64,000 nucleotides of DNA from assembly GCA_012557565.1 (NCBI GenBank), contig GCA_012557565.1_3926.1. One strand, 5' to 3'. The position numbers and the translations under genes are program-made. Source of the DNA: a phage. The notes beneath the pieces are model-generated. The model ran no database searches, was not told the DNA's origin, and was given only the letters and a program-made list of their open reading frames with translations. Positions 47,591 to 47,980 of this stretch are shown piece after piece; within the stretch, counting starts at the first letter, position 1; every line of letters starts with the position of its first letter.

Positions 47591-47980
47591 AAATAATCCT
47601 CTTTTCGTCTATAATTTTGAAAGTATAGGTACAAACCAATTTCAGAGGATTTGTAATAGAGTAATTCTACCCGCTTTGATTCCTTACAGTGATTGGTATT
47701 ATTACCTGTCTTCAATTTTGAATTGTTTCTCATTAAGTCTCCTTTGTAGATAAAGGCAGACCTACAGCTTTAGTAAGATGGTACAGTAATCCATACAACA
47801 AGTCAAGAAGTATTGCAACTAAAAAATTTACTTGACATTCCTCTTGACAACGTGTAGCCTAATAAATACTTAGAAGATTACTTAAAAGACTCTTCTAAAA
47901 AGGCTATTTAAACAGATATCTTTCTGGATATCTATCTCTTATCTTAAAAGCCTTTTAAGAGGTCTTAAAAGAGGTGAAGA

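Follow-up and report, generated by a model that had tools for sequence, protein, structure and literature searches.

In a 64,000-nucleotide stretch of phage DNA (contig GCA_012557565.1_3926.1; the whole stretch is called the window here), we found that one family of short, helically phased motifs forms arrays in three separate noncoding regions: the divergent region in front of the gp41 homologue, ending at position 47980, the divergent region beside the DNA polymerase gene, and a 1.67-kb region that holds the ends of the phage chromosome. The arrays may be binding tracts for one phage-encoded, multimerising DNA-binding protein. This one-factor reading is plausible and consistent with all the tests that were run, and we give it about an even chance of being correct. 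Judged by its sequence, the window is that of a Felix O1-like myophage (Ounavirinae) and is Mooglevirus-like. The stretches of 1–3 kb that were tested were 98–99% identical to the Shigella and Citrobacter phages ESh19, Sf13-19 and KMM4, and the identity to Felix O1-type phages was about 85%. The regions of the window were mapped onto the Felix O1 annotation and genome paper, in which the temporal regulation of transcription is described as unknown (PMC3185647). The three regions are as follows.

613–870, no strand assigned: region A, the divergent control region flanked on one side by the DNA polymerase gene (minus strand, starting at 612) and on the other by the plus-strand ORF97 homologue (871–1311), taken from the map of open reading frames.
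38330–40003, no strand assigned: region B, 1.67 kb of noncoding DNA that corresponds to the Felix O1 ORF23/ORF24 gap (1.6 kb) and holds the genome termini.
47734–47980, no strand assigned: region C, the divergent intergenic region between the ORF40 homologue (47572–47733, minus strand) and the gp41 homologue (from 47981, plus strand).

Region A is homologous to the Felix O1 intergenic region 63493–63728 between ORF96 (DNA polymerase) and ORF97, and region C to the divergent ORF40/ORF41 region at Felix O1 21416–21664. A reading made earlier from the letters of the window alone (the sequence-only reading) had taken 47591–47980 as wholly intergenic. Positions 47591–47733 lie inside the minus-strand gene at 47572–47733, which encodes the 53-residue homologue of Felix O1 ORF40 (phrog_8138, E = 2e-35) behind a strong AAGGAG ribosome-binding site, and the real intergenic region is thus 47734–47980.

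The words CTTAAAAG, CTTAGAAG and CTTTATAG are variants of one 8-mer family. Its core is CTT-NN-AAG or CTTAAMAG, with a degenerate form CTNNNNAG and a reverse form TGTTAAG, and the units are partly palindromic. The members with the best-defined CTT-NN-AAG core are CTTAAAAG, CTTTTAAG, CTTATAAG, CTTTAAAG and CTTAGAAG; CTTAACAG, CTTAATAG, CTTTATAG, CTATACAG and CTATATAG are looser members, and CTGTTAAG and CTTGTTAG are reverse-orientation forms. In regions A and C the units are arranged as two arrays.

721–862, plus strand: array of A, with CTTAATAG at 721, CTTTATAG at 734, CTATACAG at 747, CTTTAAAAG at 758, CTTAAAAG at 768, CTTTTAAAAAG at 787, CTTTAAAG at 798, CTTTATAG at 844 and CTTAACAG at 855, extending to the ribosome-binding site.
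47869–47975, plus strand: array of C, with CTTAGAAG at 47869, CTTAAAAG at 47881, CTTCTAAAAAGG at 47892, GATATC twice (47915 and 47927), CTTAAAAG at 47943, CTTTTAAG at 47952 and CTTAAAAG at 47964, the last overlapping the ribosome-binding site.

The sequence-only reading had counted CTTAAAAG three times between 47591 and 47980, and these copies were recovered on the plus strand at 47881, 47943 and 47964, with one more on the minus strand at 47952. It had also proposed that shared words recur in all three regions beyond chance AT-richness, which should appear as enrichment over shuffled sequence and would be contradicted by background frequencies inside genes. The recurrence stood for CTTAAAAG, the only listed word present in all three regions (four copies in C, four in B, one in A), and failed for CTTTATAGA, which is absent from C. 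TTAGAAG, named as a further shared word, is weak when taken alone, since its 34 copies in the window are mostly in coding DNA and none is in A. The excess was clear: the window has 15 copies of CTTAAAAG or its complement against 5.5 ± 2.3 in dinucleotide-preserving shuffles of the whole window, none of 100 shuffles reaching 15, and CTTWWAAG occurs 27 times (9.4 ± 2.6 in shuffles). Moreover, 12 of the 15 copies of CTTAAAAG lie in 7.5 kb of noncoding DNA and three in the 56 kb that are coding, so that the density per kb differs 30-fold. As a control for AT-richness (the G+C content of the three regions is 28–35%), each region was dinucleotide-shuffled alone 1000 times. The four copies of CTTAAAAG in C were set against 0.09 expected, and the degenerate word CT[TAG]NN[ATC]AG was observed 7, 54 and 7 times in A, B and C against 1.1, 7.7 and 1.4 expected; in each case none of the 1000 shuffles reached the observed number.

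The units are also regularly spaced, a feature absent from the sequence-only reading. The self-similarity of bases in 38560–39330 peaked at a lag of 11 (0.44 against a baseline of 0.28), with harmonics at 21–22, 31–32 and 42; A had its peak at the same lag of 11, 47800–47980 at a lag of 12 (0.47), and coding controls were flat. The spacing of 10–12 bp corresponds to approximately one helical turn, and both unit orientations are present within single arrays. In the complete genomes of Felix O1 and SUSP1, clusters of at least three CTTNNAAG within 60 bp were found only in A, B and C. In addition, a weight matrix was trained on region B alone and used to scan the 120-bp windows outside B in five genomes of at least four lineages (the window, Felix O1, SUSP1, Erwinia phage M7 and Pectobacterium phage Wc4). 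C and A were among the top one to four windows in all five genomes; they were the top two in M7, and C was the top window overall in Wc4. This ranking bears out the earlier proposal that the three regions are specifically linked by one motif family. A coding stretch at 33990–34110 (open reading frame 33970–34317), which holds CTCTATAAAG, CTTTAAAG, CTTGTAAG and CTTTATAGAG, scored as high as A with the same matrix and could be an internal site or chance; a high score was also obtained at about 68411 in SUSP1, in the corresponding block of small genes (homology with 33990–34110 unchecked).

The conservation of the arrays was compared with that of neighbouring genes. Between the window and Felix O1 or SUSP1, the third codon positions of the ORF41, ORF42 and ORF97 homologues were 60–67% identical, with 60–62% for the genes that flank the array of C. 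In contrast, the identity to Felix O1 and SUSP1 was 91% and 96% for the array of C, 89% and 93% for the whole of region C, and 84% and 87% for region A from TTGACA onward. Because the identity of the arrays far exceeds that of third codon positions, the arrays are under purifying selection. In alignments of 18 distinct sequences for A and 10 for C, the CTT and AG of the units were kept and the inner W-rich bases varied (CTTAATAG/CTTAAAAG; CTTTATAG/CTTAACAG/CTTTACAG), and the last unit of C varied as CTTAAAAG, CTTATAAG or CTTAGAAG. Such a pattern fits a degenerate protein site and not a base-paired RNA. More distant relatives whose gp41 homologues are 51–66% identical (loci L132–L136, Erwinia phage M7 and Pectobacterium phage Wc4) keep the layout of a promoter followed by an array of 11–12 bp period upstream of the DUF5681 gene, the family to which gp41 belongs, and the preferred unit is CTNAACAG in Wc4 and in locus L135. 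In a marine relative (L137, 39% identity), the upstream gap instead holds an 11-bp TTAATAA repeat, CATTTAATAAA, in four copies; a very strong tandem repeat with an 8/12-bp period lies just downstream of its DUF5681 gene (L137 3041–3360).

The consensus differs between regions and lineages. By hexamer enrichment, TGTTAA/TTAACA was dominant in region B of all five genomes (17–40 copies against about 2 expected). In A and C, words of the TTAAAA type are the leading ones in the Felix O1-like genomes and belong to the enriched set in M7, and in Wc4 the TTAACA variant is dominant in C as well as in B. Arrays that persist while their consensus drifts by lineage are expected for sites that co-evolve with a phage-encoded binder. 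The notion that the arrays are functionless, arising from chance, AT-richness or slippage debris, draws on the AT-richness of the regions and on single words such as TTAGAAG that are not enriched alone. Nevertheless, it is refuted by the region shuffles, by conservation far above that of synonymous sites and by the recovery of the arrays across genera, and it deserves practically no credence.

Region B is a mosaic of degenerate units of 10–11 bp (TTAAAAG, TGTTAAG, TTGTTAG, TATATAG and TTAGAAG), with successive units mostly 10, 11, 12, 21 or 22 bp apart. Its main parts are the following.

38594–38650, plus strand: array of CTTAAAAG type, reading CTTAAAAG cc CTTTATAGAG CTTTCTAGAG c CTTAAAAG aat CTTATAAG, just outside the left edge of the terminal repeat.
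38763–39320, no strand assigned: the short direct terminal repeat (DTR; 558 bp in the window) that forms the physical ends of the virion DNA.
39480–39870, no strand assigned: arrays to the right of the terminal repeat, with TTGTTAG, CTTAGAAG and six copies of CTATATAG; AT-rich tracts at about 39413–39440 and 39908–39955 flank them.

The stretch 38763–39320 was identified as the terminal repeat because record ends of relatives, or DTRs called in them by PhageTerm, map there. The record of CRP22 carries an identical 579 bp at both ends, which map to 38763–39320 of the window. The same stretch aligns to record positions 1–612 of vB_EcoM-Ro111lw, for which PhageTerm called a DTR of 613 bp (PMC6454146), to 1–580 of I14.1, with direct terminal repeats by PhageTerm (PMC11737134), and to 1–612 of SeKF_63, as well as to the record ends of SPJ41 and EcSzw_1 and to "repeat_region" features of four Danish phages. 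About 25 phased TTAACA, TGTTAAG and TTGTTAG units occupy the repeat, spanning 38778–39317. The sequence-only reading had seen 38396–40003 as a convergent junction and the minus-strand module next to it as bracketed by regulatory sites; since the stretch holds the DTR, this framing was mistaken, the left boundary of the module being the end of the chromosome. At the terminus, a role in packaging or replication is at least as likely as one in transcription control. The GenBank records of many relatives are cut elsewhere or carry spurious "hypothetical proteins" annotated across this noncoding region. A 24-nucleotide direct repeat, ATGAGNTAGATTCTANCGAATCCA, is present at 39337–39360 and 39960–39983 (623 bp apart) with an internal GATTC-N4-GAATC hairpin, and its second copy lies within a terminator-like structure that ends the minus-strand module. 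This pair was considered as the boundaries of the terminal repeat and rejected, because the DTR maps to 38763–39320 and the first copy is deleted in CRP22.

The nearest parallels are the short-repeat arrays of phage T7 and the p6 tracts of phi29, to which we return below. In T7, CCTAAAG arrays at 17–65 and 175–350 have a spacing of 10–13 bp and lie inside or next to the 160-bp terminal repeat, and the related words CTTAAAG, CTTAAAAG and TTGACTTAAAG are next to its early promoter A1. These short-repeat arrays were reportedly named SRL and SRR by Dunn and Studier in 1983, and to our knowledge their function is still unsettled. As in T7, units of 7–8 bp are arrayed here in and beside a short DTR at about 10–13 bp, and CCTAAAG resembles CTTAAAG and CTGTAAAG by eye. 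Unlike T7, the phage belongs to a different virus family and uses a different unit, and its arrays also fill leaders of about 100–150 bp at two divergent regions 8 kb and 38 kb from the DTR, which are parts of a duplicated promoter module. It might be supposed that only B is functional, as a T7-type array for end formation or DNA entry, and that the copies in A and C are unrelated leaders of similar composition. The terminal repeat within B and the T7 arrays agree with this, and so does the difference between the dominant units of B (TGTTAA) and those of A and C (TTAAAA) in Felix O1-like genomes. On the other hand, training on B alone was enough for the matrix to pick out A and C in five genomes, CTTAAAAG arrays are also present in B (38594–38650), CTTAACAG in A is the reverse complement of a terminal-repeat unit, one variant dominates both B and C in Wc4, and T7 itself has CTTAAAG and CTTAAAAG by promoter A1. 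We regard a terminus-only function as rather improbable.

In A and C, the arrays follow candidate promoters. These and a third, smaller module are listed below.

673–702, plus strand: rightward promoter module of A, with TTGACA at 673–678 and 685–690, candidate −10 TAGTCT at 697–702, spacer 18; a predicted promoter that is invariant in 18 related sequences.
810–824, plus strand: small inverted repeat or hairpin, ATGTAT-AAC-ATACAT, within the leader of A.
36546–36625, plus strand: third small module, with TTGACA at 36546 and 36558, TAGATT at 36569–36574, CTTAAAAG at 36605 and CTTTATAGA at 36616.
47778–47806, minus strand: candidate leftward promoter of C, TTGACT-N17-TACCAT, predicted by consensus scan and invariant in relatives.
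47832–47860, plus strand: rightward promoter module of C, with TTGACA at 47832–47837 and 47844–47849, candidate −10 TAGCCT at 47855–47860, spacer 17; the −10 is conserved in relatives as TAGGCT or TAGCCT.

Tandem TTGACA sites were found three times in the window (A, C and 36546), all on the plus strand and each followed by CTTAAAAG. A and C have a common layout, AAAAAG..GTTGACA-N6-TTGACAAGG, then a weak −10 and an array up to the ribosome-binding site, which the last units overlap (CTTAAAAGAGG, CTTAACAGAGG). The two regions align collinearly over about 190 bp, with scores of 98 in Felix O1 (46 ± 7 for shuffles), 94 in SUSP1 (43 ± 7.5) and 74 in the window (44.5 ± 7), that is, 4 to 7 standard deviations above shuffles. 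A and C are therefore paralogous modules in which promoter and array were duplicated together, a relation that the sequence-only reading had not noticed. All three modules match the sigma-70 pattern: TTGACA, a spacer of 17 or 18 (16–18 allowed) and a −10 (TAGCCT, TAGTCT or TAGATT) whose second base is A and whose sixth is T. Consensus scans for sigma-70 promoters and terminators gave numbers not above shuffle expectation in A and C and about twofold in B; weak −10 elements escape such scans, and the stricter sigma-70 scan misses those of the modules because only three of six positions match. The modules differ from the early promoters of 31.7–38.1 kb, whose −10 boxes are good (TAAAGT, TAGTAT). 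In the Felix O1 genome paper, promoter P41 uses the TTGACA of the C module as its −35, but with TATAGG as the −10 and a spacer of 15; apart from P41, the two divergent regions had no recognisable promoters, and none was reported in the ORF96/ORF97 region (PMC3185647). ORF41, 42, 96 and 97 of Felix O1 fall in one RT-PCR class with a maximum at 25 min (PMC3185647), which is weak evidence for common control because the class holds more than half of the tested genes.

We infer from these sequence patterns that a protein binds the arrays, that it is a single protein, and what it does. One phage protein would multimerise along one face of the DNA on the phased units. The tracts of B, filling and flanking the 558-bp DTR, would mark the chromosome ends and might serve terminase recognition, concatemer processing or end-proximal replication. 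In A and C, the tract would lie directly downstream of a sigma-70-type promoter with a perfect TTGACA and a weak TAGNYT −10 and run up to the ribosome-binding site. These tracts would head two long rightward operons, one for replication and nucleotide metabolism (ORF97) and the other for tRNAs, packaging and morphogenesis (gp41), and the bound protein would modulate the two promoters, most simply by repressing or timing them.

Considering that the arrays of A, C and the third module lie in predicted 5' leaders, they might instead act in RNA, as a protein site, a translational enhancer or repressor, or a stabiliser. They fall within the interval from the predicted −10 to the start codon, their last unit overlapping the ribosome-binding site, and a gene for a Ro60-like RNA-binding protein (gp42) follows gp41. 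The folding of the C leader was marginally better than that of shuffles (z = −2.2), while that of the A leader was no better (z = −0.96). In the alignment fold, the only covarying element was the 15-nucleotide hairpin at 810–824, of which two pairs show compensatory changes in relatives (C-G to U-A and U-A to A-U). The array units themselves did not covary, and when the third unit of C varies, its would-be hairpin partner shows no compensating change. An Rfam scan of the whole window matched only tRNAs and no family for the array regions. Moreover, no transcript is predicted for the terminal repeat and its surroundings, which hold the largest arrays. The presence of both orientations, the concentration of units in the terminal repeat, the lack of Rfam matches and the uncompensated changes favour a DNA-level role. 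An RNA-level explanation is accordingly of low probability, but RNA may play an added role in A and C, where the arrays abut the ribosome-binding sites of predicted leaders.

Another possibility is that the DNA is read through its intrinsic structure. Curved or deformable DNA could tune promoter strength, as an UP element or a downstream element does, and aid wrapping at the ends without any sequence-specific factor, or through shape-reading host proteins such as H-NS or Fis. The power of AA/TT phasing at 10–11.5 bp reached its maximum for the window in A (2.5 against a mean of 0.48, standard deviation 0.29) and exceeded the 99th percentile in C, in the terminal repeat and in the third module; the low G+C content and the free variation of inner unit bases among A and T point the same way. 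However, several other promoter-rich intergenic regions phase equally without the motif family, the conserved parts of the units are borders that contain C or G (CTT...AG) and not A-tracts, and A-tracts are missing from TGTTAAG and TTGTTAG, the units that prevail in the terminal repeat. The consensus also changes with phage lineage within enterobacterial hosts, and scans for the consensus sites of IHF and DnaA found none in A, B or C. Intrinsic structure as the whole explanation is therefore unlikely, and curvature is likely a physical correlate that explains neither the CTT/AG borders nor the A-tract-free units of the terminal repeat.

It is also conceivable that B is a replication origin with iterons and AT-rich tracts, whose initiator autoregulates the replication operon at A in the manner of plasmid Rep-iteron systems. 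Phased iteron-like arrays in inverted blocks, the AT-rich tracts at 39413–39440 and 39908–39955, the control by A of the DNA polymerase and primase/helicase operons, and the extremes of the cumulative GC skew of SUSP1 at A and B would fit. Nevertheless, gene orientation confounds the GC skew, the proteins scanned against family libraries included none recognised as initiator-like, DnaA boxes are lacking as noted, and the array before the packaging operon (C) is left unexplained. An origin is thus very unlikely to account for the arrays.

If a single protein does bind the arrays, there is weak evidence that gp41 is the best candidate, from its small-terminase position and an AT-hook-like basic arm.

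47981–48352, plus strand: gp41 homologue, 123 residues, Pfam DUF5681 (E = 1e-13).

The protein has an invariant N-terminal FKKGxSGNPxGRPKGSxN followed by helices, and the gene is conserved throughout the relatives. The flanks GRPKGS(K/R)NK show a statistically non-significant resemblance to the HMG-I(Y) AT-hook on DNA in 2EZD (PRGRPKGSKNK). The small terminase of Felix O1 was not found in the genome paper (PMC3185647). Three distant, unrelated DUF5681 loci were examined, and in all three a large terminase gene directly follows the DUF5681 gene (PHROG large-terminase E-values of 2e-99, 2e-42 and 4e-6 for the downstream gene). Because distant DUF5681 genes adjoin large terminase genes, gp41 is probably the "missing" small terminase. 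In the window, the large terminase gene (55671–57287) shares an operon with gp41, with gp42 and a tRNA island between them. A reasonable but unproven proposal is that gp41 reads the arrays at the terminal repeat. It is a further step, and quite unlikely in our estimate, that gp41 would use the AT-hook-like arm as a dual switch for packaging and transcription, reading the same arrays at the ends and in the operon leaders; accumulating gp41 would then nucleate packaging at the DTR and, at the same time, turn off middle transcription or alter its timing. ORF85, an Xre-type helix-turn-helix protein and the only annotated transcription regulator of the group (in Felix O1, its gene being outside the window), was rejected as a common binder because M7 and Wc4, which keep the arrays, have no detectable homologue.

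Several observations weigh against the single-protein reading or against gp41 as the protein. The 2EZD match was the only one in the PDB for the peptide or the family profile and was not significant (E = 0.25–0.29), the core in gp41 is S/N/A/L-G-R-P in place of the canonical R-G-R-P, and Pfam AT_hook did not match gp41. No known DNA-binding fold was recognised in gp41: the AlphaFold2 model had a pLDDT of 62.6, and Foldseek against the PDB gave nothing below E = 2.6. PDB searches with sequence and profile likewise gave no significant match, to a solved small terminase or otherwise. No obvious arrays were seen near the three distant DUF5681 loci, and there is no ready explanation for a terminase subunit at the DNA polymerase/ORF97 promoter. 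Many units have G or C in the core (TGTTAAG, CTTAGAAG), which a pure minor-groove AT reader would disfavour. In C, the spacers too hardly vary, which suggests extra constraints such as overlapping promoters or leader RNA, and the A-rich phased units predict intrinsic curvature that could act without a specific protein.

Known systems resemble parts of the proposed one-protein arrangement. The architectural protein p6 of phi29 binds with a periodicity of about 12/24 bp at the genome ends and in the central divergent early/late promoter region, and serves both replication and transcription switching; it reads bendability and not a motif, and the phi29 ends are protein-primed. The distribution over termini and divergent promoters is alike here, whereas the phage has a direct terminal repeat and a motif in place of the known bendability preference of p6 (a p6 homologue was not searched for). 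The omega protein of pSM19035 and ParR/parC of R1 belong to plasmid partition systems, in which 7–10 contiguous direct or inverted short units about one helical turn apart are bound by ribbon-helix-helix proteins; through these units the same small protein acts both on promoters, as operators, and in segregation or handling of the DNA. The phased short units here could likewise be both operators and DNA-handling sites, but they are more degenerate, and no ribbon-helix-helix or ParR-type protein was identified. In the P1 pac hexamers, the lambda cosB R sites and SPP1 pacL/pacR, repeated short elements flank the site of terminase cutting. The window likewise has short repeats at a terminus and, in gp41, a candidate small terminase; those sites are single loci, in contrast to the recurrence at promoters here, and the packaging mode here is of the T7-like DTR type. 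The comparisons with T7, phi29 and omega/ParR are analogies and carry no claim of membership. Neither a description of these motifs nor a mapping of transcript 5' ends was found in the literature searched on Felixounavirus transcriptomes, DUF5681, phiEa21-4 repeats and T7 terminal-repeat arrays.

Felix O1-like phages (Ounavirinae) are in wide use for the typing of Salmonella, for biocontrol and for therapy. The temporal control and packaging recognition of this group become experimentally approachable through testable elements: the two paralogous modules of promoter and array, the terminal repeat architecture and gp41 as a candidate trans factor and small terminase. For engineering, strong selection acts on the two leaders and on the seemingly empty region of 1.6 kb, and none of them should be treated as a free insertion site. 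The dual switch, if true, would be a first among tailed phages that have direct terminal repeats and would account for the temporal control of Felix O1-like phages, which have neither a sigma factor nor an RNA polymerase of their own.

Other features of the window were recorded along with the arrays. The Ro60/TROVE-like gene gp42 (48429–49844; DUF2828 and DUF7788; "RNA-binding protein" in PHROG) lies directly upstream of the tRNA island (50010–55238), which holds 25 tRNA genes; according to a PhageMaP preprint, Y-RNA-like partners may be among these "tRNAs". The island also contains a 272-bp tandem duplication (53330–53885; two copies, 76% identical), whose start falls inside the 3' end of a tRNA-Arg gene. 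About 15 small early genes at 31700–38100 each have the same upstream cassette, with a sigma-70-like promoter (TTGACA-N17-TAAAGT or TAGTAT) and a leader with a G+C-rich element, which is a stem-loop (ATCAACGGGG...CCCC) in most and AAGCCCCAGATAAAGAGCTTTAC in others, followed by the near-invariant ribosome-binding block CCTAAACTGGAGAATCTAAAATG. These cassettes resemble the promoter-stem-loop cassettes of T4-type hyperplastic regions, and they include, as parts, the repeats of 57 bp and 39 bp that the Felix O1 paper lists (PMC3185647). Finally, GATC is absent from the window (0 against 223 expected by base composition) and from Felix O1 (0 against 303). ATGCAT, AGATCT and TGATCA are likewise absent, GAATTC occurs once against 21 expected, and many 6-bp palindromes are missing from each of SUSP1, M7 and Wc4. 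The extreme avoidance of Dam and restriction sites is thus subfamily-wide.

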